Shown here piece by piece: positions 2,536-37,389 of a stretch of 64,000 bases of DNA (position 1 is the stretch's first letter; each line of letters starts with the position of its first letter). Source of the DNA: a virus. The notes under the pieces were generated by a model. The model was not told the DNA's origin. It saw only the letters and a program-made list of their open reading frames with translations, and did no database searches. A program made the position numbers and the translations under genes. Location of the stretch: positions 1 through 64,000 of IMG/VR virus record IMGVR_UViG_3300019776_000365; one strand, given 5' to 3'.

Positions 2536-3708
2536 ATGGCAACATTTTCAACTAGTTCAGTTAGACAACTATTTGTCGCTAACGCATCTTCTGGTACAAC
2601 CGCTGGCAGCTTTGGTGCTGCTACAGTAACAGATGGTGAACTTTCTTTTACTATTTACAATGCATTAGGAAAGCTAGTTAGCTCACCTAGAATTCCACTG
2701 TCAAAAATTCGTTCAGTAAAATCAACAGCGTATTCTCCAAAATGTTTGCGAAAGGATGCTATTAGTTTTTCAACTCCAGTGGTTGGTGAGACTTATATTA
2801 TTCGTTTCGTTATGCGTCAATGGGGTAGTGGTTCTGCTGAAAACCAATACTTTAAACATGTAGGTGCTTACAAAGCAAAAACTGGAGATGATGCAGAGGA
2901 TATTGTAGACGCAATGATTGCTAATGCAGCTGTTAACTTCTCAAGAGAGTCATCAACAATGTTTACGTTTAGCAAGGAAAATTCTGGAGCTGATGCTAAA
3001 CTTATTGTAACAGAGTATGCTCAACCTTGGGTTAAAGGAAAACAGCAAGGTCGTCCATTGGATTATACAATTCAGTTTGTAAAAATCAATGACTCTGGTA
3101 GTGACGTTTACGACTGGGGTACTGTAACAAACATCTTTAAAGCATATCCAGGAGTTGGAACTAACCATGAAGCTCAAGATATGGAGTATTTCTATATGGG
3201 AGAGCGTGGCGATGTTTATCGTAATGTTGGATATCCATTCACATTTGATACTCAGTATATTGCAGACCCTACGGCAAATTACTCAATTATTGACATTGCT
3301 TATTATACAAACGAACCACACAATAGTGGTGGAGAATTTGCTGAAAAAGTAGTCACAATACTATGTAAAGAAGCGGCGACTACAGCTCAGTATGCAATTC
3401 AAATTGCTATTGCAGGTGCTATCAATACAGCCACTGGTGCTACTACTGTACCACTTCTTGTTAATACAGGCTCTTATGTAATACTAAAAGCTGGATCTCT
3501 TGGAACTGCTGGTAATACAGAAATTACATCACTAACATCAGCAACTAAATATGTAATTTATACAAACCCTGGCACTCCTAACGAAACGAAAGGATATGTT
3601 AAGGGGGATGGTACTGTTTCTGCAACAGAATCAGATATTGCTAATTTAGTTAGTACAAAAATTACTGGACTTACAAACGGTGTTACATACTTTGTTAAAG
3701 TATACTAA
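2536..3708 (+). CDS. abundant virion structural protein (auxiliary capsid-type)
   Basis: 390 aa, MATFS..VRQLFVAN start, MEYFYMGERGD motif, Thr/Gly-rich C-terminal extension. Confidence 0.7.
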   Translation: MATFSTSSVRQLFVANASSGTTAGSFGAATVTDGELSFTIYNALGKLVSSPRIPLSKIRSVKSTAYSPKCLRKDAISFSTPVVGETYIIRFVMRQWGSGSAENQYFKHVGAYKAKTGDDAEDIVDAMIANAAVNFSRESSTMFTFSKENSGADAKLIVTEYAQPWVKGKQQGRPLDYTIQFVKINDSGSDVYDWGTVTNIFKAYPGVGTNHEAQDMEYFYMGERGDVYRNVGYPFTFDTQYIADPTANYSIIDIAYYTNEPHNSGGEFAEKVVTILCKEAATTAQYAIQIAIAGAINTATGATTVPLLVNTGSYVILKAGSLGTAGNTEITSLTSATKYVIYTNPGTPNETKGYVKGDGTVSATESDIANLVSTKITGLTNGVTYFVKVY

Positions 3709-3784: not shown

Positions 3785-4162
3785 ATGGATGAAAAAATAA
3801 AATTAGTCATTAATTTAGTTAATTGTATTATAGGTTCTTGTTTGCGCATTAGAGAAATTCATTGGAATACTCACATACAAGCACAGCACAATCTTACAAA
3901 CGATATAATGCCAGAGTTAACAGACGAGATTGACCAAATACTTGAGATTATGATGGGTATATCTGATAGACCTGGTTTTGATATATTAAAGCCAATAATA
4001 CCATCATCTAAAAACCTAAAAGAGATATTACAAGCTCTAGTAATTAAAATAGAAGCTGTTAGATCAATGACAGAAGAGCCAGCATATAAGGGTCTTCATG
4101 CAAATCTTGATGAGCTTACCGCTAATTTAAATAGGTGGATTTACCTATCAGTAAATTCATAA
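3785..4162 (+). CDS. ferritin/Dps-like four-helix protein
   Basis: IHWNT..AQH...D.I.E motif and C-terminal LDEL...LN..IYL. Confidence 0.6.
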   Translation: MDEKIKLVINLVNCIIGSCLRIREIHWNTHIQAQHNLTNDIMPELTDEIDQILEIMMGISDRPGFDILKPIIPSSKNLKEILQALVIKIEAVRSMTEEPAYKGLHANLDELTANLNRWIYLSVNS

Positions 4163-4264: not shown

Positions 4265-5197
4265 ATGACAAAACAAGAAGTTCTAAAAAGATTTAGTAAA
4301 AAACCATACCTTTTAGAGATGGGCGCTGGCAAGTTGTCAAAATGGTTTGGTGTATCTGTTGATGTAATTAAAGAGTGTAAATCTTTGATTAGAGGTTATA
4401 ATATAAAATATGTAGATGCAAAAGATGTAGTATATAAAAAAACTGGCCTTAAAATTCTAATAATAGACATTGAGACATCTCCAATGAAAGCATACATTTG
4501 GAAGCGATGGAAAGAAAATATATCATTACCTCAAACTATATCAGAATGGTTTATGTTATCATGGTCTGCCAAATGGCTGGATGGTGATTTACATTCAGAT
4601 GTATTGACCTCAGAAGAGGTTTTAAGTGAAGATGACAAGCGCATAACAAACAATTTACTTATATTGCTAAATGAAGCTGATGTTGTTATTGCGCACAATG
4701 GCGATAGGTTTGACTTACCAAAAATAAATACAAGAGCACTGCTAAATAATTTTGGCCCTATTAAACCATTTCAAACTATTGATACATTAAAAGTAGCAAA
4801 ACAACAGTTTGGATTTAGCTCTAATAAATTAGATGCATTAGCTATATTTTTTGGATTAGATTGCAAGCTTCATACTGATTTTGATTTATGGAAGCGTTGT
4901 ATGAATGGAGATGAAACCGCATTGTCTTATATGTTAGAGTACAACAATTATGACGTGGTTCTACTAGAGAAAATCTACAAAAAACTTAAACCTTGGATTA
5001 AAAACCATCCAAATGAAGGTCATTTTAGTGAAGAGGCAGTTTGTCCTACATGTGGCTCTACTCATATAAAGTATAATTCAAACTATTATACAAATGCTGG
5101 TAGATATAAATTGTATAAATGTGATGATTGCGGTGCATTATCTAAAACAAGAAAGTCAGAGAAAACAAATATAAAATTAACATCAAATATAAGATAA
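4265..5197 (+). CDS. RNase H-like/DnaQ 3'-5' exonuclease with C-terminal Zn ribbon
   Basis: IDIETS, AHNGDRFDLP and YNNYDV motifs, CPTCGS...CDDCG. Confidence 0.85.
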   Translation: MTKQEVLKRFSKKPYLLEMGAGKLSKWFGVSVDVIKECKSLIRGYNIKYVDAKDVVYKKTGLKILIIDIETSPMKAYIWKRWKENISLPQTISEWFMLSWSAKWLDGDLHSDVLTSEEVLSEDDKRITNNLLILLNEADVVIAHNGDRFDLPKINTRALLNNFGPIKPFQTIDTLKVAKQQFGFSSNKLDALAIFFGLDCKLHTDFDLWKRCMNGDETALSYMLEYNNYDVVLLEKIYKKLKPWIKNHPNEGHFSEEAVCPTCGSTHIKYNSNYYTNAGRYKLYKCDDCGALSKTRKSEKTNIKLTSNIR

Positions 5198-11395: not shown

Positions 11396-12157
11396 ATGAA
11401 AAAAAATAACAAACCATTAAAAATAAAACCACAATCTATTTTTGACAATAGATATGACGGAGGTGGATTTATAGACTTATCAAAAACATGAACTCCAAAC
11501 CTACAGCAAGAGACGCAAAATGTTAATCTTCAAATGCTTAAAGATCAAAAAGCAGGAAGGTATGATGTAAATTTAACACAATCAAATAAAACTAATTTTG
11601 GCGATTTAGCTACTAATGGTCTTGGTGTTGCGCAGGGTGTTATGCAATTAGGCTCTCAGATTGGAAATAATTTATCAACTTCTAGTATTGGTCATGAAGT
11701 TCAAGGTGTTCAAGATATATCCAGAGGCGATATTATGAATACAAATATACATGTGGATTCTAATAAAACAAACAGCTTAGGTCAAGCGGCGAGCGGTGCA
11801 TTAACAGGCGCTAAAACTGGCTCTGCATTTGGGCCAGTTGGCACTGCAATTGGCGCTGGCATAGGAGCTATAGCTGGTGGTGTTTCAAGCATATTTGGAA
11901 ATAAGGCTAAAGAGAAAGCAGCTCAAAAAGCAGAAGATATATGAACTAATAATTTAGAAGCTAAAGAAAGACAATTTGAATTTCAAGATTTAAGACAAAA
12001 TATGGCAAATTATTCAGCGTATGGTGGCGATATATTCGCTTATGGTGGACAATTCAGCAATGGATTAACAGAGTATTCCGTTGGAAATGAATATGACCTA
12101 GATGAAAATACTATTAATGATTTAATTAAAAATGGGTATAAAATCGAATACATATAA
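11396..12157 (+). CDS. cargo/ejection protein with glycine zipper (253 aa, TGA=Trp at 11489 and 11942)
   Basis: Continuous frame, GAKTGSAFGPVGTAIGAGIGAIAGG, ends GYKIEYI*. Confidence 0.85.
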
Positions 12158-12863
12158 GGTATATAAACACACATCACCATCGAATAAGGTCTATATAGGT
12201 ATAACAAGCACCAGTGAGACAAATAGATGGTCAGATGGCATGGGATATAGTAGGCAGCCATATTTTTTTAAAGCAATAGTAAAATATGGATGAATTAATT
12301 TTAAACATGAGATATTATTCGATAATTTACAAAAAGATGAAGCTTATAGGCTGGAAACTGAATTAATAAAAGAATATAAAAGTTCTGATTGTAATTATGG
12401 GTATAATATACATATTGGTGGATATATAGACTTCACAATAAGTAAAACTGGAAGAATTTATAAGAAAAGGACAAAACCTGTATCTATTAATCCAAAGTTG
12501 TGACGCAAGGTGACAAAAAGCGATAAAAATGGAAATATAATAAATATATTTGATAATGTTAGGCTTGCAGCTGAAGATGCAAAAGTTCCAACAGAAACTC
12601 TTAGAACTTGATGCAAATTTAATAAACGTCCAAGAAATAATGATTATATATATTCATATGAAGATAATGCTTCAATAGAAAAAACAATTGGATATAAAAC
12701 TGTAAAAGTAGAAAGATATGATTTATCTGGAAATTACATAGATACATTTGATTCAATTGAAGATGCTGGTAGAATTTTAAATATAAAAACAAATCATATA
12801 CCATGCGTTTGTAGAGGGAGACGAGTTCAAACCGGTGGTTATAAATGAAAATATAAAGAATAA
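12132..12863 (+). CDS. free-standing GIY-YIG homing endonuclease with two NUMOD1-like domains (243 aa, TGA=Trp at 12291, 12501, 12609, 12846); absent from the ORF track
   Basis: YKVYKHTSPSNKVYIGIT, NRW, AIVKYG[W]INFKHEIL, E.ELI, GYN, YDLSGNYIDTFDSIEDA, GGYK[W]KY. Confidence 0.9.
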
Positions 12864-19400: not shown

Positions 19401-21270
19401 AACTCCAGATAAACTAGAATCTAAAGGATCGTTACAAAAAGGTAATCCAAATAATTCTGTATTAGGCAAAAATACTGTAAGTCAAGTAGAAAATGAGGCT
19501 AATAATGTAGATAAAACATTAGGAGAATCTGAGAGAAAATCAACCAATAATGAAGGTGAAAAACTATTTGACGCATATGATCATATAGCTTGGTTAGGAA
19601 TGTCTTATGATATATCTGAAGGCAAATTTATAGACAAAGGTGTAAATAAAGATGCATCTAAAATAACATTAGATTTTAAAAAGCTTAATAAAGGTGATAA
19701 AATAACCTTTGAAGTTGTATATGATGACGCATTTATGCCAGGAAAATCATATACAGATGAAGAATTAACAGATTTTGTGACAATATCTATAAAAAAAGAT
19801 GGCGAAATAGTTGGATATGTCCATAAAATTGATTACATTCGTGAGGATAGAATAATTAAGACAGATTCTGATGGTAACGATAACCTAGAACGCAATAAAG
19901 AAGAACTTAGAAGGTTTAGGTCTTTCATCATTAAAAATAAAGGTTGAGAGTCTGTAGTTACAGACAGATGGAATGGTAGGTTGATGTTTAGTAAAGCACC
20001 ACAGCCAACAAGAAATGCATTACCAGATAAAAAACTTAATGTAGCAATAGTTACAGACGGTAATATAACAAGACCAAAATCATTTAAAAGTAATGATGTA
20101 ATTATAAATGAGGAAAAGATTAAATCTTCAGCTAAAGGTTATTTTAAAAATGGAGCTTATGCAATACTGCCAGTAAACAAAGATAATACAAACAACTATT
20201 ATATAGCAGTGCCATTAAGCCCATCCAATTTGGCGCAATCACCTCTTGAATCAGCTAATATAATAGCTCATCTCGTAAGGATGTTTATTAAAAGTCAACT
20301 GGGAGATATATCAGAAGGTGATGCTTTTAATAGAATATCTAAAGATATATCAGATAAAACAAAAGTAAAAGACTTAGATGGTGATCCTATAAATATGAAT
20401 GCCAAATCACTAGAAGGTCTTAGAAATATAATAAGTTTATTTACATACCCAAGGCAGTCATATAGAGATGATCTTGGTGTTACGGATGTTAATGGTAATA
20501 TATTTGGGATAAACTACACCAAAGATGGCAAGGCTTTAGTATTATCATTTGGTGTTGCTAATGATTTAAATACATATACAATATGGTTAAATAAACCATT
20601 AGATGAAGAAACCTTTGATAGAATGACAGAAGGGATGATAGAATCTCTATCACAGCAGTTTTTCTATCATAATAAAAACTTAACTGGTCAAACCATTAAC
20701 TTTCCTAAAATATCAACAATTAATGGCAAGATTGATGTTGAGTTCTCAGAAATGCCTTATGAAGAGTTTGTAAAAGATCATACACAAACAAACGTATCAT
20801 CACATAATATAGGAGATGATATTAACCCCAACTATATATATACTATACAATCTAATATTGTATATAAAATGCCTACTAATGATGAGTATGGTTCTATTAT
20901 AAAAAAACAAGAAGAACCAACTGAAGTTCCTAATAAACCAGAAGTTAAAAAAGCTGAAGTTGATAAAGATGTGGAGAGTATTGGCTCATTATTTTCAGTA
21001 GAAGAAAAACCAGAACCAACTAAGCCTAAAAGAGAGCGTAGAACTGGTACAGATGGTAAAGCTAGGCCAAGAGCTAGCTCTTCTAATTTTATGCCAGACT
21101 TTACATCAATAGAGACTTTAGAAGTAAATTCTGGATTTAAAATAACCCCACCGTCTAACACGTTAGGTATGAGCGTTTTAGAATTCTCTAAAAGATTTGA
21201 TTCAGAATATAGAAGATCATTTATGAAGATGGTTAGAGAAAAACAAATAGAATTTACATGCAAGTATTAA
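16480..21270 (+). CDS. giant ejection protein 1 (1596 aa, TGA=Trp at 16606, 17122, 17767, 19945)
   Basis: ORFs 16705, 17224, 17830 and 19981 share one frame joined only by TGA. Gly/Ala-rich membrane-like segments, EG..EA and EG..EEG.Q motifs. Confidence 0.88.
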
Positions 21271-21286
21271 TAAAAATATATAAAAA

Positions 21287-24200
21287 ATGATTTGTTCATC
21301 AAACGATCCAAAAGTAAAACAGTTTGAGACTATAGTAAAAGACAATGGCGCAGCAGTTGATGCTGTCCATTGGGCTTTGACTAGTTTTAGTGGTAATGAT
21401 GTAAGAAAAGTTAATGATGCAATTAAGTTTGTAGAACGTATTAAATCAGCTAAACCAACAAGTAAATCTGATGCTGATAAGATATTATCTACGTTAGAAA
21501 AGCAAGGCCTTATAAAGAAAGTGACTACTAGGGCTGGCGATCACTACTCAACTATACACCCAGAACTTCTTAATTATATTATTGAAAATAAAAGAAATGT
21601 AATTAAATCAGCTCGTGGAAATATTAGTGATAACGAAGAAGCGCTTCCGTATGACTATTTGTATTCTGTAAAACCTATCAAAGCAAATACTCAGGATATG
21701 GCTGATTTTGATGATAAAACCAGACTTGAAAAAGTTGGTTTATCTATGGTTGGTACATCATTAATGTCTACCGATGGAGTTGTAAGGATTGAGTTGGTAA
21801 ATCAAACAGTAGACACAATAGTAGAGGATATAGCAAGGGCCGTAATAGATTCAGGTGATAAAGGTATATCAAGGGATGATGTTAAAAAGATTTTTGATAC
21901 ATACTATGATACATTTGCTAGTATAGCTGATGAGTTTGAAGAGGATGGCAATGAGCTTGGCGTTAAACACGCAGAAAGCTATCTCAACAGTTGGAGTAAC
22001 CTTGAAAATATGGTTCTTGACGCTTTAAAAAGAAGGGCTGGTATTGTATTTAAAAATAACAAGCAAGAAAATATTACAGATACTTTATCAAATACAGATG
22101 TAGAAAAAATATCTGAAAATAGTGGTGCTGATTTAGATGGTGCTGATAAAACTCAAGGTATATATTCGGATGATTTTTCTATCACTCTTGATAGTAAGAT
22201 TGGGTTGTCTGGTAGATTAAAGCTATTTATGTCTACATTAAAGAGTGGTAAGGTTCACTACTTAACTAATGAGCCATTATTTGAAAAATTTGATACGGCA
22301 TACAATACTCTTAATGCTATCCTTTCTAATACAGAGCCTAACTTTGGCAAGATGATAGCTAGATTGGATCAATTTAGAGATTATGAATGAATTGCCGATC
22401 TATCAGACAAACTAAAAGCTCAAGGTAGAGATAGCAAATTATCCAAAGAGTTCATTACGGCGATGAATAAACACTACGTTGATATGTCATATATAAGCTG
22501 GTCTAATATGGGCTCTAATGGCTTTAAAATGGCTATTAATGGTGACAATTCAAATTCCAGAGTTAGAATGATATTTAATGATTGGAATGAATCTTTTTAT
22601 AATAGTAATATAGTAAAAACGAACTCTAATTATGTGCAATACTATGACACAAAAGCTGCTAATGACGCTGTGGCTGCATTTGACCATATGTTTGAAAATT
22701 CAGGCACAATTGATGCTCAAACCATTGTAAATACTATGGGTCTTGTTGGTATTAGATTGTCAAATAATACAGCAGAAAATCTATTAAAAAATGGATTTAA
22801 ATATGGAAGAAAACAACTAAATACAAATCAATTATTTGATATAAAGAATACTAATTCTCCAATAACAAGTGTATATAAAAAATTAGCTGCTATATCTAAA
22901 TTAAAAGACAACGTAGAGGTTGGTTCTGATGAAGAGTTAGATTTTCTAAAAGGCGGTGCAATGAGAGCATTGGCTGCTATGGAGTCTAAATACACAAAAC
23001 ACCTATACAGTAACTCATTTCAATCAGGTAATAAGACAATATTTTCATACACTAATGATAAGTTTATAGTTGATAGGTTTTCAGATTTACTTAATGGATA
23101 TAATAATGGAGATTATTCATTATTAGATAGTTTATCTACAGATGCCTTTGCTAAAAACTCAAGATGGTTAACACAGCTATTAAGAGCGAAAGATGCTACT
23201 AATGATAATGATACAGCCTTTTCTGAGGTGTTTGATTTTCTTTACCTATCATTAGATCCTCTTAAAAAAGAGAAAGGCGAAGCCGCTGATAGACCATTAG
23301 CTGATTTATCTCCAAAAGAGATACTGGCGGCTAAGTTAGCCTTGATGTATAACAATGGCATGACAATAGCTGGTGATAAAAATAGAGTTGGTAAAATGTT
23401 TTACCCAACAATGTCAGACAAAACCACTATGATTGCCATACAGAATATATTATTATCAAGACAATATACAAAATTAGACACCGATAATAATGGCAATATA
23501 ACTGTTAACAACGATCTAGTAGATTATATATATGATAATGTAGTTAAAGCTGAAATGAATAGAATGTATGCTATTCAAGAGAAGACTAAAAACTATAGAG
23601 AATCATTAAATGTTGAAGGTTTTGATGGTGGTGCTAGATATTTCTATACAATACCAGAATTGAATGGTATAGCCGACATGTTTACATGAGATGAAGCTTC
23701 TGGTAAACGTTATTTAAAGCAAGAGGATGACTTTATAAAATCATTACCTTTAATTAAAGAGTCTATCAGGTTATCATTAAACGCTATTGTTACAAATCAG
23801 ATAGAGCAATTTAAAAAAGAAGGTATTGGGTATGCGGTTGATGCTGAAAATAAAGAATTGCCATTGCAATATATAGATAGCAGGTTGGTATCATCAGTTA
23901 GAGATTCTTTGGATGATAAATCACTTAAAAATATATCAGATAATATAGCCGCCGACTTTGCTGTTAACTATTTCTTGCATAATCTTAATGTAGCGCAATT
24001 GTTCCATGGAGATTACGTTAACTACTTTAAGAAAAATAAAGCTCAAGAAGAGCTTGAAAAGCAGTTAAAAACAGGTAATGTTTCAGACCTAGCATTGCTG
24101 TATGACGCAGTTAAAGAAACATTTGATAACTTAGGCAAGCGTCTTGCTGCAGATTTAGCTCCTGGCTATGAGGCTGACTATGGTGAGTCTAAGCCATTTA

Positions 24201-25756: not shown

Positions 25757-26027
25757 AAACGTTAATGTCCGAGTAAAATCCTGTGAATTGCTGGAAACCC
25801 CTTAGAGTAATTCAAACTACAACATAGATAGTAATATCAAATGTGAATGTTTAAAAATTGAATTAATTGGGCAATCAGCAGCTAAGTAACTATCCTGTCA
25901 ATTATGATAGTTAAAAGTTCAACGACTAGAGGTGAGCCGACAGAGCAATAAAACCTCAATAGCGCAGGACACCTTAATGGTGATGATATAGTCTAATCTT
26001 TATAGAAATATAAAGCTAATAAAAATG
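25757..26027 (+). mobile_element. ORF-less group I intron (271 nt) in the RNAP catalytic motif
   Basis: P1 TCGGAT/GTCCGA with U-G at the splice site. P10 ACGTTAA/TTGACGT. Core elements AATTGCTGGAAA, AATCAGCAG, TTCAACGACTAG and GATATAGTCTAA. Terminal G. Splicing restores GSD|FDVDKL. Confidence 0.95.
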
Positions 26028-29000
26028 TTTGACGTGGACAAACTATACACATACATGTATGCTACGAAAGAAATTATCGTAGATAAAGAAAAATCTAAGG
26101 AATTTAAAGCAAAACTTAAAGAGTATTATACCAAAGATCAGATAGAAGCTCGTAATCAATTTGGTGATATTGTAAATATACTTAATAGTGATATTGAGTT
26201 GACAGAAGATCAAGAGTCTATGCTTATTGATACACTAAATAGTATAAAAGAAGCTCATAATGATATTAAAGAAATTAAATCATGGCTTAAAAATAATATA
26301 AAGATTGTTAAAGATGAGGAAAAATCTTTGTTTAATGACCTTTTAGATATACATTTGGCTGTATTTAAAAATGGTAGTGATGATTTGTATAGATTAATTA
26401 TGGCTCCAAATGGTTTTGGTCAGTTAAAAACTGGTAAAACCACTGGACTTGGGTTTGATATTGAGAGACTAAAAGACAACGCTAATAAAAATAGATTAAA
26501 CTATCTATCTCCAGAATACCAACAGATGAAATTCCTTAACGGCACTTCAGGCAAACAAGGTGTGGGAATTTTTAGTTCGCTATCTATGTTTAACTCAATC
26601 ACCCAAGGCAAAGAGCTTAGATATGTTAATAAGTCATCAGATAGCGATAGAAGTGTATTCAGTGTTACATTTGGTAATGAAAAATCTAATGGCGAGTTGG
26701 GTTTATTAAAAACAATCAATGGAAAGTACTTCACATCTAAAGTTATTGAAGCGTTTCAGTCTGCATCTGTAGATAATGAGAAAGAACAAATTCTATACAA
26801 ACTAAATATAAACAAATACACAGCACCCGTTATTAATGCTTTAGCTGTTTTAGGCTTTGATGAAGAGACTATATGTTATTTCATTAATCAGCCTATAATA
26901 GAATATTACACAGAATTTATGGCATCTAAGGATTCATCATTAAATGATTTCGATCCAGATGCCGGCGCTAATGTTTTTGATAAAATAGAGAATTTTATAA
27001 TAGGCAAGTACAATATAACTGATATTGACAACTCATTAAATAATTCTGGAGTTGATGTTTTAAAAGAACAAATTGCAACTAAAGAACAAAATAGATCTAA
27101 AAGTTTTTGGGAAAAACAACTTGGATTGCTTAGAAAATTTGAAGAAATTAACGAAGTTGGCAATTCAGTTCAAGCATTGATGCAAACCGTAAATGCAGAG
27201 TCTAAAGGACTCGGTAAGACATTGTTTGGCTCATTATCAAGAGAAGATAAAATTAATGATATAGATGATGTAACTGAGAGGTATAACTCTGGTAAGTCAG
27301 CTACAGGTATTATTAATGCAGGTAGAATTCTATATGAATTTAATGAAGATGGTGAGTATACAACTAATGAGTTTAATGGAAAAATCACAGACTCATTAAA
27401 TGGTTTTGTAGCAGAGTATGGCACTAAAATATTAAATAATATTGGTTCTCAAATATTCCCATATAGAAAGAAGCCAATTAATGATATATTTGATTATCTA
27501 AGAGAGCTATTAGGCAAGAAAGGTTCTTCAATATCTCAAGATGAAGATTTTATGGGTAAAACTTTTACAGCAATGAAGTCGTATTTATTCTCTAATACTA
27601 ATCTATATGGAGATAAAGTTGATTTAAAGGCTGAAAGAAAACGTTTATTTCTTGGTGAATATAAACTATTAGATCCAAATAATCCTAACGGAGAAGCTAT
27701 ATTAGTAAACCCATCACTTGCTGACACCATAGAAGCATTAAAAAATGAAAACATAGGTAAGTCTAACATGCTACTCAGGATGCTTACAGTGGACAAAAGA
27801 ATGACCTCTAGCGCTGTTAAACTGGTTAAATATAATGCAGCATCTGGTCAAAATGCAGATGAGTCTGAAATACACCAAGCATTTATAGCTTTATTTAGAG
27901 AAAATGTGCCATTAGAGTATAAAATTGGTGATAAAATTAATAAGATAAACTCAAGAGATCTTGCTTTAGATTTAATTAAATACACTTATTTATCTGGTGG
28001 CTCTCAAGAGGCTATACAATTCACTAGATATATACCTATAGATGTGCTTGAATATATTGGATTTGGCGATAGAATCAATACTATAGCAAAAAATATTAGC
28101 TTATCACATTTTGGTACAAGTGTAGAAAAAAATTCAATTAAAAATTCCAACTTTGTTGAACAGTATTTACAACATAACCCAAGTAAAGTGCCAGTCAAAA
28201 TTAAAGGTAAACTAAACAAAGGCAATAAAGATTTAAAAAATGTTCAAATAAAAGATGGTATTGTTTGGAAATTCACTCCAAACTTTACAGTAGATACAAC
28301 TAAAGGTTCCGCTGATTATATGTTAGGTCAAAAATATGTTGTTGGCATGACCGACAATATGAAATATCTAATATATAAATTTAATGGTACTGAGTTTGTA
28401 AATATACCTACACTTGGAACATTTGGTATGAGTGAATATGACTTTAACCTACCATCAGGAGAAGTTGCTCAATCTGTAATTACATCAAGAAATATAACTC
28501 CTTTAAATGAAAACAAACCTAGTGATATTAGCAATAAATTATCACAACAGGTTAAGCAAGAAGAGTTAGATGTAACAAAAGAATATGACTTATATAAGAA
28601 TTCATTAGATAATGAAAATCAAATTAAAGGTATATTAGAGTTAATATCAAAAAATGGTAATGAAGCCAACAGTCGCATTGCTAAAAAGCTATTAGAAAAC
28701 ACTCACCTTTTAAATTCTATTAGTGATTATAATTTATCTTATGGAGATGTTGGTAGGTCATCTGGTAGGCACAACATGTATGATAAAACTATAACCATAT
28801 CTAATATTAAAAACAAGTTTAAATCAAAAGATAAACTTGAAAATACTTTAGTTCATGAAATAGTTCATGCATATACTGTTAGAACGCTTAGATTAATATT
28901 TGATGATAAATTCAAATCAGAAAATATAGAAGAGTTTGAAAATCTAGATCCTAAAATTATTGAATCCGCTCGTAGAATTAGATCTATAAGAAGAGCTTTA

Positions 29001-31691
29001 GTTTATAAGGCTAAGTCATCTTCTAAAGAACTTAGCGATAAACTTAAAGACATAGAAGCTTGGTGGGCCAACAACAAAACAACTAAACTTACAGAAGAAC
29101 ATAAATTTGCTTATTCATTGAGTGATGATTTTGAGTTTGTCTCAATGGCGCTTACAGATAGTAGTTTTAGGTCAGAGATTGATAAACTAGATTCTATAAG
29201 TGATAATAATAGCACTCTAAAGAAGCTATGAGACGCTTTGCTTAAATTCTTAGGTCTTGATAGTGTATCTAATATAGATAAAACATTTATTGAAAACAAT
29301 ATATTTAATTTTATAGATACTATTGAAACATCTATTAAAGAACCATCAAAAAAGATTGACAAGAAAGAATTTAAAGATAATGAAGAGTATAGAAACTTAT
29401 CCAATATACTTGATGAAATAGAGTCTAAAAAAGAAGTTGAGATAATTAAAGAGCCAGTTAAATATTACGAAGGAAATATAACTCCAGATAAAAATACTAT
29501 ATTTGTTTTTGGTAGTAATCCAGAAGGTCGTCATGGTGCTGGTGCCGCTAAAATAGCGAGAACACAATTTGGCGCTATTTATGGTCAAGGTGAAGGATTG
29601 CAGGGTAATGCATATGCTCTACCAACAAAAGATCTCAGGATTACCGAAAATAAAGGATTTAAATATATATCATTTGATCAAATCGTAGAAAACATTAAAA
29701 AACTATATGAAGTTGCCAAACAAAATCCAGATAAACAATTCAAAATAGCTTATAGAAATACTACGACAACATCTTTAAATGGATATACTGGATTGGAAAT
29801 GATTGAGATGTTTAAAACTGCCGGTGATATTCCATCAAATATTGTATTTAGTAAAGAGTGGATTGAAACTGGCGAATTTAATAAAAAAGAAGAACCAAAA
29901 GTTGAAGAGCAAACAAAACAAGAAGATCCAAAAAGTAAATCATTTTCATATAAAGGTGTATCAATAGACACTGAATTTCAATTAGGTGAAGACCAAGACA
30001 AATCACTTAAAGAGTTAATAGATTTTATTGATGGCTCATCTGACACAGCAATGACACTACAAGGTGCTGCTGGTACTGGCAAAACAGCTACAATTGGTTA
30101 TCTTCAGAAATACTTAAACAAAAAAGGTTATACTCCTTTTGTTTATATGGCTCCAACACATGCAGCAACTGTAGAATTAGCATTTGCTACTGTTAAAACT
30201 GGAAATACATCTATGCCATTTACTGTAGCTAAGGCTGTAAGATATGATAGTCTAAATAAAAAGAATGTATTTACCATGAGAATAAATGAAATTTTATCTT
30301 ATGGTGGTGTTATAGTAGTCGATGAATCTTCAATGCTTGATGATAATGACGTAAATGCTATAATAGAAGCATCTGAAAATATTGGTGTTAAGGTTGTTTT
30401 TATGGGTGATGAGAAGCAGATACCAAAGGTTAGCAAAGAAGGTGGTGATGTAATGTCATTATTTGGTGAAGATTTTGGGACTATTAAAAAAAGAGTATCA
30501 TCTGCTTTTACGAAACTAAAGCAAACAAATCTTAGACAAGTTTTTAGACAATCAGACAATGGATTGCTTGCACTTTTATCTAAAATGAGATCTCAAAATA
30601 ATTTTAAATTATTTAAAGTGAATAACAGAAAGTCTGTAAAATTTGTTGATAGAAGTGAGTATAATAAATTATTAAGGGAAGATATATTAAACGATCCTGA
30701 AAATACTATTGTTATATCATACACAAACGGTTCTGTTCAAGAAGTTAACAAAAATGTTAGATTAATTAGAGGTATGAGTGGTAGTCCAAAAGTGTTTGAT
30801 GTTATCATTGGATATATAGGGTATGCCAATAAAAAGATAGATGCTGGGAATATAGCTAATAGTGTTCAATATACTATTGATACAATACAAAGAGATGGCT
30901 CAGAACTTAGAATTATAGCAAATTCTGATAAACTAAAACAACTAGTTGATTTAGGGATATCTGGTATATCTAAAGTAGCATTTACTAGATATTTGCAGTT
31001 ATCACAAGGTGATAGTCTTTCTATTGATGATATGACAAAAGAAGATTATGACAACAACAATGAAACATTATCTAATATATTTAGATCGGTGCATGAATTA
31101 AATATGGCTTATGACAGAAAACAGATTAAATATTACACATATCTAAATGCATTAGCAGAAAAAACTGCTATTTTAGCTGAATTGTCTGTTGGTGATAGTT
31201 ATATTTATAATCCAAAAATCGATAAAATGGAGCGTTATGATCAAAAGATTCATAAAAACATCAAATCATCTGGTAGTGGGTCTTTGTTGTTTGAGAAGGG
31301 CGTTGATTATGGTCATGCTATAACAATACATAAATCTCAGGGATCTACTATAAACAATGTTTATTTTGACGCAGATTCAATAAATTCAGCTAGAGATACA
31401 AAAATACTTGATGAAAAAGACAATCAAGTCACAACTGAAAAAATGGCTTTAGCTTATGTAGCTATGAGTAGAAGTAAGAATAAACTTGTTGTAAATAAAG
31501 GTAGTCAAGCTTTTGAACAGATAGATGAAAATGAAGTTGAATCATTGCCTGAATTTAACGACTCTAGTTTTTTCGAATTAACAGAGGATGAAAGCAAAAC
31601 TTTAATTAAAAAGCATGGCGACAAAGCTATAGAGATGTATAATAACTTAAATGACGAACAAAAAGAAATAATACTTAAATGTTTAAGATAA
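26028..31691 (+). CDS. virion RNA polymerase polyprotein, exon 2, with zincin, macro-like and SF1 helicase domains (TGA=Trp at 29229; about 3377 aa in total)
   Basis: FDVDKL, SASVDNEK, HEIVH, FVFGSN..GRHGAGAA, GAAGTGKT, DESSM, GD..Q, TIHKSQGS and YVAMSR motifs. Confidence 0.9.
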
Positions 31692-31692
31692 T

Positions 31693-34600
31693 ATGGCTAA
31701 ATGTATAATACATAATGATAAATTTAAAGACCTGGTTGAAAAATCAGGTCTTAACTCTATGCAATTAGAGGCTGAGATGAATCTTTGGATGACTAGAAAT
31801 AATACAGATATTTGGCCAACTCTTAGTCAATTGGGTATTGAATTCAAAGATATAACAAAAGAACATAAAGGCATTATAAGAAATAGACTTTCAGATATAA
31901 TCCCAAACATATCTGAAGATAAATTTAAAGAGATATATGAAAATTATACTTCATTAATGGGTAGAGGCGGTAGGCCTGGGAAGGAATTGCCTTTTAATAA
32001 ATTCAAAGCGTTTGTTTCAAATGCAAATGTGTATAACTATAAAGATACTTTTATTTTTGGACACTATGATACAATAAATAATGTTTTTATAACTACCATA
32101 AGTAGCAGCCCAAGTAGTAAAGAACTTTTAGCTGAAGCTATACCAAATATAGCTAAGAATTTTGATGTTATAGGATTTGCGCCAAAGGATGTTGTTGGCA
32201 AATATAAAAGAAGTGGATACGTTGTTAGCGATGCATTTTTTAATTATAATTTTAGAGGCGAAGAAATGAATAAATTTCTATATGCATCAAATCCTAATAT
32301 AACAAAACGTATATATGGTAAAAATATAGAAGATTTATCTCAGAAGGAAATATTGGATTTAGATAATAGATCGTTGGGGTATATTTCATTTAGAAATCTT
32401 CTTGACGAATTAGTTACAAATAAAGATAATTATAACTATAATATTGTAAACAATAACCTAAAAGAGCTTAGGGTTCCAGCTCATCAAAGAGAGAGGTTTT
32501 TAAAAGAAATAAAAAATGGTAGATATGAATATACAGAATACTCACTAATACCAGCAATCAAAAAGCTATACGATTTTAAAAAGGTTGATATTGATGAGAA
32601 AGACGAAAATGCTCTAAATCAAATAGTTCCAGATACCGAAAATCAATTAAACAAACTGTTAGTCAATTATCTTTCTAACTTTGGAATAAAAACAGAATAC
32701 ATTGAAGATATACAAAATAAACTTGGTATAGATTCACTAGGAACTGTTGATATTCTTAACAAAATTGCATATGTAGATAAAGATAATACTGAAGATTTGC
32801 CGGAAATTGCAGGTAAATTTATAGCATATATGCTTCAACACAACCCATTGATAACATCCACATATGAACAGCTTAGAAAAATAGGTAAATATAAAAATAG
32901 TAATAAGGATGAATTGTTAGATATAATAGGCGAACTTATAGCTAAAGAGTTGCACAACAAAACGGATGTTAATTTACCTAAATCTTTAGCAGAAAAAATA
33001 CAATCTATAATTGCATATTTTTTTGATTTACTAACAAAGGCCAGAATAAATAAAATCAACAAAGATATTGGAGTTATTGTTGATTCAATCTTATCAAATA
33101 ATAAATCATTAATAACCGCAAGTAAATACAAGCCAGGATCTCCTGGTAAACAGGTTTTGCAAGTGTCACTAAAAGAGGCATTAAGATCTGATAGTTTTGC
33201 TAACTCTATAGTTAACAAGATGGCTGATAAAGGATTTATTCTAACTGGAAGTGTTGTTCTTTCAGAGCAGGGCTCTATATTTAGACCAGAAGAAAATCAA
33301 GTTCATGATTTAGATTGGGTAAATCCTCATAATGAAGAAAAAACTAATGAGATATTAGATGAAATATATCCAAATAGAAAACATATAAGAAATATATATA
33401 ACGAAGGTGAAGAGTCGTATACTCATACATTTTTAATAAGTCCAGAAGGAACTAAAATAACAAACCTAAAACTTGAGGGGTCAAATTCCATAGTTAGATC
33501 ATACAATATAGTAAATGATAATAATGAAATAGTTGGCTCTTATTCCAATGAAAATGGTGTTGAAAGATCTAATGGTATTGAAGGGAAGGCTATAGATCTA
33601 TTTATGAATGAACGTAACAAATTAACTCCAACTCAAACAATATTAGAATCTGGAATAGTTTTAAACATGTCAAATTGAAGAGATATTTTTAAAGCTAAAC
33701 TAAGATATGCAAGATTAAAAGATATCTGAGACTATAATAGATTTATACCAAATGAAAATATAACAATAAAAGAAATTGCAAAATCAGAAATTAAAGGAGA
33801 AACTTATAATTCCACAGAAGATGCCCCAGATATGACAGAGCCAGATGATATTACCGAAATGGGAACTTTATTTGACATAGAAATACCTGATGAATATAAG
33901 CTGTCAGATTTCAACTTAACAGAAGAAGATGAAGATACTATAAGTCAAAGCTCATACGCTAATCTTACAAGGATGCTTATATATAGACGCAATGATATAT
34001 ATAATGACATGCAAAATACTAGTACAGCCATTAGAAATGCTAAAGATGAATCTGAAAGAACCAAACTTAGAGAAAAGTACGCTGAGTTAAAAAGCAAAAT
34101 GGACTCTATCGTTGAACGTATAGATAAAGCCAATCAGCTTAAAAACATATCTCAATTAGTTACATTTGGTGAAGAGGATTTATCTGAGGCTATAAAGTTG
34201 TTAGAAGATCCTAATTTAACAGAGCATGGCCTTAGATATGCTAAAAGAATTGTTGATTTTTGGATTAAAGTAGCTGATTTTAATGTAGAGCGTGAGGGCC
34301 ATGTTTTATTTGGTAAGAGCTACGATAAAGTTATATCAGATAAAGAAAAAAATGAGTTTTTAGATTTGGCTAATAGAAAAGAAACTGGTGCTATAGCTTT
34401 GAGTCATATAATCAATGGGCTATCTAGAGATTATATATCAAAAATGGTTAATAAACAATTAGATGGGACATTTAGTATAAAAGATATATATAAAGCTATA
34501 GAAGATATTAACTGGTGGAAAGCTAATGCATTCTCAATACAAGACTATTCTTCGCCATTATTAACGGCTATGTATAAAACTATGCGTCAAGCCGACATGG

Positions 34601-37389
34601 ATGCTTCTAAAGAGGCTGAAGTGCTATCTAAACAGTTGAATGATCTACTTAGTAGGGTTAACAAAAAGCTAACATCAAAAGGAAGTGGTAGATATAGGAT
34701 ATTCTATCAAGAAGAGAATGGTAAGCTAAATGGTAATCTAGTAAGGATATATACAAAGAAATATCAAGATACAAAAGAAGAGTTACTTAAAAAAGCTCAA
34801 AATGCCACTGGTGACAATAAGGCTAGAGCTTGGGATGATTTTAAAAGATGGTCTAAAGCCAATGAAGATCTAATAGATATTAGATTGTTGTTCCCCACAG
34901 AAGAGTTAACTCAAGATCAACAAATAGCAGCAGATAAACATAAAGCTCATATACTTAAAATGTTGGGTCAACGACAGTACGATAAAGTTATGAGTGAAAT
35001 TTCTGAAGCTTTAATTGATTATGATATATCAAGAAATCTAAAGAAGAATCAATTAGAATTAGATGATACTTTATCTGAAGATGATAAGTTTTTTAAACTA
35101 AAAGAGTGAGAGCATAAGAAATCTCCATATATTGAGATGGAGAGACGCTTGGGTAGTTTAGAAGATGATGGTACATACAAGGATTCTAAAGTTATGTTAG
35201 GCCCTAATAGAACATTTGCAGACAAAGGCGTTAGAGGTCTTAGAACTATTGCAAAAGAGTATTTGAGTGATGGTACAAAAACAGAATGGTATGATCCTAA
35301 ATTTAAAGAAATATCTAAAGATAAGGATTTGTTAGAGCTGTATAACTTCATATACGATACTATGGATTATATGAAGACATTATTACCAGAGCATCAGAGA
35401 AATCAAATATCAACTAATACACTACCATTTATAGAAAAATCTATTGTTGATATGTTTTCTGAAAACTCCGCTATTGGCATGGCTAATATGTGGAGTGAGA
35501 TACAGAACTCATTTATGATTAAAAACTTAGATGAACGCAAATATGATGAAATTGATGTAACAACAGGCAAGGCTATATCAAAGGTAAAAGTTACCACCTT
35601 TATGTCTGGAGATAAGAGATTAAATGATGCTATAAAAATAAAAGAAGCTGAGTTCATAGCTAAGACTGGTAAAAACCCATCAAAAGAAGATGCAGTAAAA
35701 TTTAGAAAAGAAGCTTTAGATGATTTAAATAAAGAAAGATCATTTGATTTGCCATCATTAATAAAGATGTATACAGGCTCGTTATTGGCCTATAAGCATA
35801 AATCTAACGTTATAGATATAATAGAGATAGCTAGAGATGCCGTTGATGAAATAAGCGAAATATCGACATCTAATGCCGGTAGAGAGCAAATAGATCCATT
35901 GACTGGTAAGCCTAGAGTTCAAGCTGGACTAACACACCTCAAAGAGTCATTAGATTACGCCATGGATGCTTTTAAAGGGCAGCCAATACATACTAGAACG
36001 GCTGCATCACAAAATAAAAAATACAACCATAAAGACAAAGTAGAATTAAATAAGTTATTATCTACTAAAGCTTTGTTGGATGAAAAATTTAATAAAGGTA
36101 AGATTAGCAAAGCAGAGCATGATAAGCAAATATCTGTAATAGACAGTAAAATAAACTCATTGGGAGGATATGCTTCTTTTGAAAAAGCTGGTGAAAATGT
36201 ATTGAAATACATTCAACTTAAAGGCATGGGATTTAATGCTATAGCAGGTGCTGTCAATCTAACTACAGGCTGGTTAGAGAACTGCATTAGATCTGCTGAT
36301 GGTAGGTTCTTTGATTCATCTCAATTAGGAGCTTCATATAGAGATGTTATGTCTACTATATACGACCCTATGAGAAAAAATAGCACTACTAGAAAATTGG
36401 TAGGTATAGAAAAGTCCTTAAGGATATTAAATAATCCAGCTCATGAGTTGTATAAAACCGAGTCTAAGTTTGGAAAAGTAGCTTATATTATAACAGAAAA
36501 GACTGAGTTTGTGAACGTTATGTCTATGTCTGGTGCTTATCTTAGAAATATTAAAGTTAAAGACGCTAAAGGCAATGATTCTAATCTATATGAAGCATTT
36601 AAAGAGGATGGGTCTATTAAAGATGGCTGGAAGTTAAGCAATACTAAAACTAATGATGAGTTTTTGTTTGATGTAAGCCAAGCTATACAAGCTTTAATTA
36701 AAAGATCTCATGGTAACTACAGAGATTCACTCAAGGGTAAAAAAACTATATTGGGTCAAATGGCCTTTCAGTTTAGGACTTGGATGCCAGAATTGTACAA
36801 TTCAAGGTGAGGAGCAACTCAGTATGACTATATACTTAATAAAGAATTTAAGGGTAGATGGAAATCATATGGCACATTAACTGGTAGTGAGTTTAATGGA
36901 AATACATTTACAGCAGCAGACAATACATTGTATACATTAGGTCAGCTATGTAGAAAGATATTATTTATGAGGACTTCATTTGATGGTAGGATGTCAGAAG
37001 TTGATGCTGCTAACATGAAAGCAAACCTTATGGAGCTTCATTTTGTACTTGGTACTATAGCTTTGATGTTAATGTTAAGAGCAGCCATTCCAGATGAAGA
37101 TAGAAAGAAAAACTTTACATATAATATGTTGATTAATCTTATTACAAGACAGCAGAATGATATATTAGTTTTCGCTAACCCTGGGACATTTGAGCAGATT
37201 AATAAAAATGTATTACCAGTAACAAGTGTTATATCTGATACTAAAAACTTAATGACGGCTATTAAAAATGAATTTAGCGATGATGATAAACAGCATGGTA
37301 AATCATTTGTTAAGGCCGTTAAGATGGTCCCACTTGGAGGCCAGCTAGTTAGAATTGGTCAATATGGATCTAAAGAAATAGCTCAATAA
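31693..37389 (+). CDS. giant ejection protein 3 (1898 aa, TGA=Trp at 33676, 33727, 35107, 36808) with internal nucleotidyltransferase-like domain
   Basis: Four ORFs in one frame joined only by TGA. HGNY, QFRTWMP and GRWKS motifs. Internal LTGS...DLD. Confidence 0.88.

Follow-up and report, generated by a model that had tools for sequence, protein, structure and literature searches.

The last late gene contains a conserved nucleotidyltransferase domain

We analyzed a stretch of 64,000 nucleotides (hereafter the window), which comprises positions 1 to 64,000 of the IMG/VR record IMGVR_UViG_3300019776_000365, a complete virus record of 90,821 bp with terminal repeats, and focused on a nucleotidyltransferase (NTase) domain encoded within the open reading frame (ORF) 31693..37389 on the plus strand of this phage. 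Translated with TGA as tryptophan, the ORF specifies 1898 amino acids and contains four in-frame TGA codons (W662, W679, W1139, and W1706). It is the final gene of a plus-strand late block that opens with the major head protein and includes virion structural proteins as well as several proteins of 1350-1900 amino acids; its neighbors are a polyvalent ORF of 1888 amino acids upstream and a strand switch downstream. Under translation table 11, the same frame is split into four ORFs (31693..33678, 33832..35109, 35137..36810, and 36928..37389). No tRNA genes were found within the 64,000 nt of the window.

The NTase domain spans 33154..33762 on the plus strand (residues ~488-690) and has a beta-rich insert of ~70 residues between the strand carrying the DxD motif and the third carboxylate. 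The original prediction had placed such a domain at 33230-33745; it is indeed present there, but the folded domain is slightly larger. The three NTase motifs that had been claimed, LTGS...G...R......HDLDW, AIDLF, and AKLRYARLKDIWDY, are all in frame when TGA is read as Trp. Sequence and conservation define the hG[GS] motif as G519-S520 (33247..33252) and the metal-binding DxD, which follows an invariant histidine, as H538-D539-L540-D541 (33304..33315). The third invariant carboxylate, D635 in AIDLF (33595..33597), lies on a beta strand of the structural model, and the C-terminal helix motif reads K669-x4-R674-x-K676-D677-x-W679-D680 (33697..33732).

For the conservation analysis, 214 near-full copies of the domain, ~28-62% identical to that of the window (BLAST, phmmer), were cut out and aligned to the domain hidden Markov model (HMM). 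H538, D539, D541, and D635 occur in all 214 copies, so that the aspartates, whose conservation had been named as a check on the prediction, are invariant. Nearly as constant are G519 (213/214), S520 (203/214, with G in 10), G527 (207/214), R531 (208/214), and F637 (209/214) as well as, in the C-terminal helix, K669, R674, K676, and D677 (211/214 each) and D680 (210/214). The spacing from the serine to the aspartate of the DxD motif is 18 residues, compared to 9-13 in the classical arrangement. At the level of sequence, the presence of the motifs is confirmed to be far above chance, and by every sequence criterion the NTase is real and predicted to be catalytically competent.

The codon assignment is supported by the same alignment. 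The TGA of W662 (33676..33678) falls in a column with Trp in 132 and an aromatic residue in 177 of the 214 homologues, and that of W679 (33727-33729) in a column with Trp in 170; both domain TGA codons thus align with mostly-Trp columns, which independently supports TGA as Trp for this gene. As had been noted, the C-terminal motif is visible only under this code, W679 being part of it. The Lys and Asp of the C-terminal catalytic helix follow the first TGA, and the full protein therefore requires UGA to be read as Trp. The public gene call of the ORF (P0087, 31693-33678; 661 amino acids) ends at this first TGA, which under the standard code is 8 residues before the catalytic Lys, and lacks the K..R.KD..D helix. 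There is a lesson for annotation in that databases hold an NTase missing its Lys/Asp helix. A further suggestion, that the domain is connected to the manipulation of decoding by the phage, is not supported: a single-protein search of IMG/VR returned nine loci on contigs of 37-136 kb, in which the domain contains no in-frame stop of any kind and mostly resides in ORFs of 2300-2750 amino acids or more (table 11). The module is thus not tied to stop-codon recoding, and the only such connection in the window phage is that the catalytic helix lies past the first TGA, as is the case for late genes generally.

Predicted fold and relation to known NTase families

An AlphaFold2 model of residues 480-702 (mc85d6bd90768), built from an alignment of 33 sequences, reached a predicted local distance difference test (pLDDT) of 89.4 and a predicted TM-score (pTM) of 0.85. 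Foldseek searches against the PDB returned JHP933 (4o8s, E 2.3e-5) and MenT1 (8an5_B, E 9.4e-5) at the top, together with TglT/MenT3, MenT4, and TM1012, and placed Pol beta and viral poly(A) polymerases at lower ranks. A structure comparison with VIA-align against 48,161 representative chains gave MenT1 as the best match (Z 10.2; 146 residues, 3.4 Å), followed by TM1012 (Z 9.7), TglT (9.5), LnuA (9.1), a Megavirus poly(A) synthase (8.9), and ANT(2'') (8.9); JHP933 (Z 8.2) and MenT4 (Z 6.7) scored lower, with terminal uridylyltransferases, CCA-adding enzymes, and Pol X members below. NTases make up the bulk of both lists, with aligned lengths of 133-156 residues and Z values of at most 10.2. 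Among the viral structures of BFVD there was no close match (best E 3.8e-4, TM ≤ 0.41); poly(A) polymerases of African swine fever virus (ASFV) and asfa-like viruses were among those returned. Judged by its predicted structure, the domain is a Pol-beta-fold NTase closest to MenT/AbiEii-type enzymes, in line with the fold that had been anticipated. Since the top matches lie within ~1 Z unit of each other, structure does not settle the choice between an RNA and a small-molecule substrate.

At the level of sequence families, the domain stands apart. No Pfam, PHROGs, PADLOC, or NCBIfam model matched the window domain or 33 relatives (Pfam at E ≤ 1), PF08843 (AbiEii) had no match in the six frames of the phage genome, and neither single-protein nor profile queries found a match for the domain by sequence in the PDB. 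PF10706 and the other Pfam families of antibiotic NTases gave no match to the domain either; PF10706 itself was seen at one locus in 201 genomes. For a more sensitive comparison, AbiEii genes were gathered from bacterial genomes, and eight trimmed sequences were aligned with the 214-copy alignment using hhalign. The resulting alignment covers 161 columns with four motifs in register, at a probability of 1.7% and P 0.03 (reversed control, P 0.24). Against an untrimmed alignment of 29 AbiEii sequences, the GS..DxD segment alone was aligned (probability 0.3%). The elements that are colinear with AbiEii are G[GS] and the Arg, the DxD, the third carboxylate, and a Lys followed by R.[KR]D..D. In this alignment, D635 falls in the AbiEii third-carboxylate column, and the K669..D680 motif aligns with EKL..A...R.[RK]D.YD of AbiEii with a spacer ~8 residues shorter. 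The corresponding C-terminal Lys and Asp of MenT3, K189 and D211, constitute motifs III and IV (PMC7450476).

The earlier description of the domain as AbiEii/MenT-like is therefore apt for the fold and the active-site motifs but does not extend to an AbiEii HMM match. The active site reads like that of a DUF1814 enzyme; judged by sequence, the domain is not a member of that family by any threshold and appears to be without toxin-antitoxin features. It is an unannotated family of the Pol-beta superfamily.

The structural similarity to MenT1, MenT3, MenT4, and JHP933 and the four colinear AbiEii motifs raise the alternative that the phage happens to carry a classical AbiEii/MenT toxin from an exclusion or toxin-antitoxin system, or that the domain is a structural relic without activity. 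We consider this very improbable. Besides the lack of an AbiEii HMM match, no antitoxin-like gene was seen beside the domain, since it lies inside a giant late protein (no search aimed at an AbiEi HMM was made). Furthermore, S78 of MenT3 and T39 of MenT1 are the phospho-acceptors used by the cognate antitoxins, and the equivalent residue, two before the first Asp, is L in 129 copies, V in 46, I in 24, F in 8, and M in 6, with S/T never among the commonest residues. A relic, in turn, is at odds with catalytic residues that are invariant across 214 copies.

One observation concerns the beta insert. In a distant relative (L009, 3173-4132), it holds an extra Cys/His-rich segment of ~120 residues (..GRGSPLGNPF.., ..CFCSPKACHGD..), which shows that a nested domain can be accommodated there.

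The NTase is the third unit of a mobile cassette

Whole-protein BLAST against 216 homologues showed that residues 480-690 are common to 211, residues 300-479 to 178, and residues 60-290 to 98 of them, while no widely shared region was found beyond residue 700. The NTase is accordingly the third unit of a mobile conserved cassette, which consists of a GNAT-fold domain (31858..32379, plus strand; residues ~56-229), a helical or small alpha-beta linker domain termed Y (32380..33153; residues ~230-487), which accompanies the NTase in 178/216 homologues, and the NTase itself. A model of the cassette (m131851cbab8b; residues 40-705, 42 sequences) reached pLDDT 83.8 and pTM 0.79. The cassette is followed by an acidic linker of low confidence (33763..33972), with pLDDT <50 at the end of both models.

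The first unit is structurally well recognizable. VIA-align matched it to 3ey5_A with Z 10.4 over 150 aligned residues and to 28 GNAT chains at Z ≥ 8, and Foldseek gave a probability of 1.00 for many GNATs, SpeG and PAT included; in the ESM Atlas, the region met only unnamed clusters at 0.90 or below. The acyl-CoA pyrophosphate motif Q/RxxGxG/A is absent, with SSPSSK in the beta4-alpha3 loop instead, and CoA binding is for this reason uncertain. S138, S139, and P140 of this loop are 88-94% conserved, and P164, D166, G175, E190, and K194 are conserved as well.

How the cassette came to reside in the window ORF is illustrated by a relative with the standard code (L005), in which it forms a separate gene of 762 amino acids (38% identity over P0001 residues 42-690, E 1e-144), followed by genes of 300 and 1152 amino acids and a strand switch. 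The 1152-residue protein, the last late ORF of this relative, is homologous to the C-terminus of the window ORF (E 7e-10). Because L005 encodes both parts separately, we regard the window ORF as the cassette fused to the N-terminus of the last late gene.

Further observations concern the linker and the sequence that follows the cassette. The linker helix EIAGKFIAYML (32800-32840, residues ~370-382) aligns with PHEYAHIYINLLEG in the distant homologue P0185, and a module with ..PEEAAHFFVEML.. like the P0185 segment recurs elsewhere in relatives. The linker region may be a decayed zincin-like module; we do not claim it as a degenerate zincin, as HExxH stands at the aligned helix in 1/197 homologues (P0185). 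The modules right after the cassette in relatives (P0007, P0012, P0131, and others) include a second NTase-like segment with GS..DID (P0007), a canonical GNAT motif (P0012), and Walker-A kinase-like and ADP-ribosyltransferase (ART)-like segments. Between them lie linker peptides that occur repeatedly, for example ..PGVEELF..NPELAN.VYEALGF... An apparent cluster of 84 members downstream of the NTase proved to be a single-linkage artefact of these shared linker peptides, the underlying modules being different, and the modules behind it have no counterpart in the window.

Distribution in phages

A search with residues 470-690 identified 84 relatives among proteins of 1043-3322 amino acids (E down to 1.5e-86), and an exhaustive search found 270 cluster representatives at E ≤ 1e-3 and 166 at E ≤ 1e-10, corresponding to a family of at least 270 clusters at 50% identity. 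Nearly all homologues are part of proteins of 1000-6000 amino acids, in which the position of the domain varies (e.g., residues 403-629, 2258-2480, or 2853-3074) and which also contain ART-PolyVal, Zeta toxin/AAA_33, PDDEXK_1, LysM, NADAR, and tRNA_lig_CPD domains. A domain-only profile search for stand-alone forms returned six short proteins, five of them on contigs <2 kb, which are probably fragments. The 185,579 prokaryote species genomes searched yielded a single locus, which lies on a 139-kb contig in a metagenome-assembled genome of the Myxococcales; the family is nearly confined to phages. None of the GenBank phage records searched by tblastn, cultured and gut crassviruses included, holds the domain or the cassette, and we found no description of the NTase family or of the GNAT-linker-NTase cassette in the literature.

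The cargo-protein context makes delivery into the host plausible

For polyvalent proteins, packaging and delivery have been predicted (Iyer et al. 2017, PMC5512222). The window protein and its relatives match this type of protein: GNAT and NTase occur within one ORF, the cassette is found at differing positions in giant proteins, and the homologues follow the polyvalent-protein pattern because they carry ART-PolyVal, Zeta toxin, PDDEXK, and LysM domains together with shuffled modules. In addition, the C-terminal region (35740..37389, plus strand) is similar to the last late ORF of L005 and to proteins of crass-like phages, matched by residues ~1350-1860. The best annotated of these, QOR59154.1 of cr111_1 (24.6% identity over 361 amino acids, E 1e-9), is described as 'putative RNA-polymerase subunit [phiCrAss001]' and is, too, encoded by the final late gene ahead of the strand switch. 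For crAss001, RNA-polymerase-associated proteins have been found in the virion (PMC10172136). By analogy, it is a reasonable inference that the window protein is plausibly delivered at infection.

These results lead us to propose, at a probability of roughly 0.6, that the domain is a catalytically competent NTase of a virion-cargo cassette that is injected and modifies a host molecule. The analysis shows the fold, the motifs and their conservation, the cassette architecture, and the position in the late operon, whereas activity, packaging and injection, and the target are inferred. The protein would be made late, once UGA is read as Trp, would be packed into the capsid alongside the other giant cargo proteins, and would enter the next host by extrusion, either before the DNA or along with it. 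There, D539, D541, and D635, whose carboxylates would converge, would hold two Mg2+ ions, G519-S520, R531, and K669 would hold the phosphates of a nucleoside triphosphate (NTP), and the nucleoside monophosphate (NMP) would be moved from the NTP onto a hydroxyl of a host molecule. The outcome would be host take-over or counter-defense.

Several points weigh against this proposal. The activity of the family members is a prediction from sequence and models, and the presence of the window protein in virions and its entry into the host are deduced by analogy from context. The likeness to crassvirus cargo is weak at the identity given above and concerns the C-terminal region rather than the cassette. 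No HMM library recognizes the domain, and the profile-profile similarity to AbiEii, at P 0.03 against 0.24 for the reversed control, is not significant. In the structural comparisons, neighbors with RNA, small-molecule, and uncharacterized substrates are tied, so that any ranking of targets is little more than a prior. Finally, the domain is acidic (median isoelectric point (pI) 5.7, median net charge -3), which disfavors RNA binding by the domain alone.

The fusion to a protein whose C-terminus resembles an 'RNA-polymerase subunit' also allows for an enzyme on the phage's own side, which might tail or mark early transcripts of a virion RNA polymerase, nucleotidylate cargo proteins or DNA ends, or act late in the producing cell. 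Late expression of the protein and the viral poly(A) polymerases among the structural matches (Megavirus, ASFV, asfa-like) would agree with such a role. We nevertheless judge it improbable, as the cassette is joined to many proteins at varying positions and also occurs alone, which argues against a fixed polymerase partnership, and as the poly(A) polymerases do not score above the other matches.

Candidate targets in the host cell

Provided that the NTase is an active injected enzyme, as we favor, the 3' ends of host tRNA or other RNA, the target of MenT and AbiEii, come first among the candidates, at odds clearly below even; a host protein, modified by NMPylation, follows at a short distance, a small molecule as for ANT/Lnu enzymes is less probable again, and other targets account for the remainder. 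RNA or tRNA ends are favored by the closest structural matches and by the helix with motifs III and IV. GNAT toxins such as TacT and AtaT acylate charged tRNA, and by analogy the cassette could be a virion-delivered two-enzyme device attacking host tRNA acceptor ends, in which the NTase would extend the 3' end and the GNAT domain would acylate charged tRNA. We regard this specific form as unlikely. If true, it would be the first injected phage effector that modifies tRNA ends, and it would either shut off host translation immediately and selectively or disarm tRNA-based defenses.

The acidic character of the domain suits a protein target better than RNA. In this alternative, a host protein, for instance a translation factor, RNA polymerase, or a defense nuclease, would be NMPylated (e.g., AMPylated) by the NTase, and the GNAT domain would acylate that protein or a different one. 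T4 Alt, the classic phage enzyme injected with the DNA, and MntA-type NTases neutralizing HEPN toxins offer analogies, and ART-PolyVal domains are found in the same proteins. Matches of the GNAT model include protein acetyltransferases of the RimI and Naa types, and Iyer et al. (PMC5512222) predicted that, in polyvalent proteins, both the NTase and the GNAT domains act on proteins. However, the closest solved NTases are not protein-modifying, minimal MNT-type NTases are not at the top of the lists, and no target can be identified. We therefore rate a protein-modifying effector as a serious but minority possibility, the most probable of the alternatives considered here.

A modifier of small molecules would combine the GNAT domain and the NTase, in some relatives with a P-loop kinase, and inactivate an antiphage metabolite or signaling nucleotide at entry, much as AAC and ANT enzymes act on aminoglycosides. 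The structural scores of LnuA, ANT(2''), and TM1012 are tied with those of the MenT toxins, the partner domain has the GNAT fold, and a Walker-A kinase-like module directly follows the NTase in some relatives (the motif is present in 21 of the 25 relatives whose post-NTase sequence forms one cluster); moreover, an early step of phage infection is known to be blocked by aminoglycosides. But the domain matches neither PF10706 nor another antibiotic-NTase family of Pfam, no injected enzyme is known to modify drugs, and these are aquatic phages whose hosts and host metabolites are not known. This leaves the explanation unlikely, about on a par with the two-enzyme tRNA device.

Injected phage proteins work before any phage gene expression, and few such enzymes are understood. 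The present family is large, has strictly conserved catalytic residues, and was missed by four HMM libraries; its closest relatives of solved structure are toxins that elongate tRNA ends and thereby halt translation. If the target were found, the very first stage of host take-over or counter-defense in crAss-like phages would become accessible to study.

Neighboring genes and further features of the cargo proteins

The upstream ORF (26025-31691, plus strand) encodes 1888 amino acids with one TGA and is a polyvalent protein in its own right. In the N-terminal half, it matches phrog_16227 ('virion structural protein'), and it further contains a zincin-like HExxH region at residues ~905-952 (weak SprT/M76 matches), a phrog_2072 domain at residues 1147-1281, and a Dda/RecD-like helicase at residues ~1249-1832. 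Elsewhere in the late structural block, a homing-endonuclease-like ORF with four in-frame TGA codons (12132-12863, plus strand; phrog_314, E 2e-24) overlaps genes on both sides. Two further plus-strand genes stand among the late-strand head and virion genes, one encoding a protein of the 'DNA polymerase exonuclease subunit' family (4265-5197; phrog_403, E 2e-87) and one matching phrog_858 ('starvation-inducible transcriptional regulator'; 3785-4162).

The giant cargo and polyvalent proteins are nearly devoid of cysteine (0.08% in 219 homologues), yet a Cys at residue 3-4 (M.C.N..) is present in 98/209 and one in the last four residues (..LKC..) in 91/219. In the window, the gene junctions at 21250-21300 and 31670-31730 read ..IEFTCKY*|MICSS.. 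and ..ILKCLR*|MAKCII.., and similar Cys-flanked junctions were seen in L005 (4520-4550, 6810-6840, and 7715-7745) and in L003 (7650-7690). The terminal cysteines could serve the end-to-end pairing of successive proteins or act as a loading or ejection signal.

Comparison with known systems

Among characterized enzymes, MenT1, MenT3 (TglT), and MenT4 of M. tuberculosis, AbiEii, and JHP933 of H. pylori (DUF1814) resemble the phage domain most, as the best structural matches (Foldseek E 2e-5 to 1e-3) and, for the DUF1814 NTases, in the catalytic layout of G[GS], Arg, DxD, third carboxylate, and a C-terminal helix with Lys and R.[KR]D..D. Compared to AbiEii and MenT, the phage domain has features of its own, namely the beta-rich insert of ~70 residues ahead of the third carboxylate, the invariant His right before the first Asp, an Arg-to-DxD distance that is longer by four residues, and a spacing from the Lys to RxKD that is ~8 residues shorter. 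In contrast to MenT1 and MenT3, it has L/V/I at the position of the Ser/Thr phospho-acceptor, and unlike for the MenT toxins, no adjoining antitoxin-like gene was seen at the locus, where no search aimed at an AbiEi HMM was made. Whereas these toxins stand alone as proteins of ~200-300 amino acids, the phage domain is acidic and internal to a giant late protein.

Some resistance enzymes pair an NTase with an acetyltransferase-fold domain, and the phage NTase is likewise paired with one. ANT(2'')-Ia, LnuA, and TM1012, small NTases of which two modify antibiotics, align over 133-134 residues with Z 8.9-9.7, which equals MenT within error. The likeness is structural only; there is no sequence-family match, and the context is different.

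The cargo proteins of crAss001 (gp45, gp46, gp47, gp49, and gp50; PMC10172136) are, like the window protein, giant proteins at the end of the late block, and the C-terminus of the window protein is homologous to a protein that was annotated, after crAss001, as an RNA-polymerase subunit and occupies the same operon position. The similarity is weak, and packaging of the window protein is a prediction.

The Pol-beta NTases of polyvalent proteins have been described as minimal, with four strands and three helices, related to NTox45, and usually fused to ArdC-N; their reported occurrence is limited to conjugative elements, for the most part those of Firmicutes, and does not include phage-type polyvalent proteins (PMC5512222). 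As in these proteins, the NTase of the window phage belongs to a polypeptide that combines several enzymes, is encoded by a mobile element, and is predicted to be delivered into the recipient cell. It differs from them in its larger size, its likeness to MenT, its near restriction to phages, and its pairing with a GNAT domain. Since the 2017 census had Pol-beta NTases in conjugative elements only, the family described here extends the repertoire to phage cargo proteins and to the coupling with GNAT.

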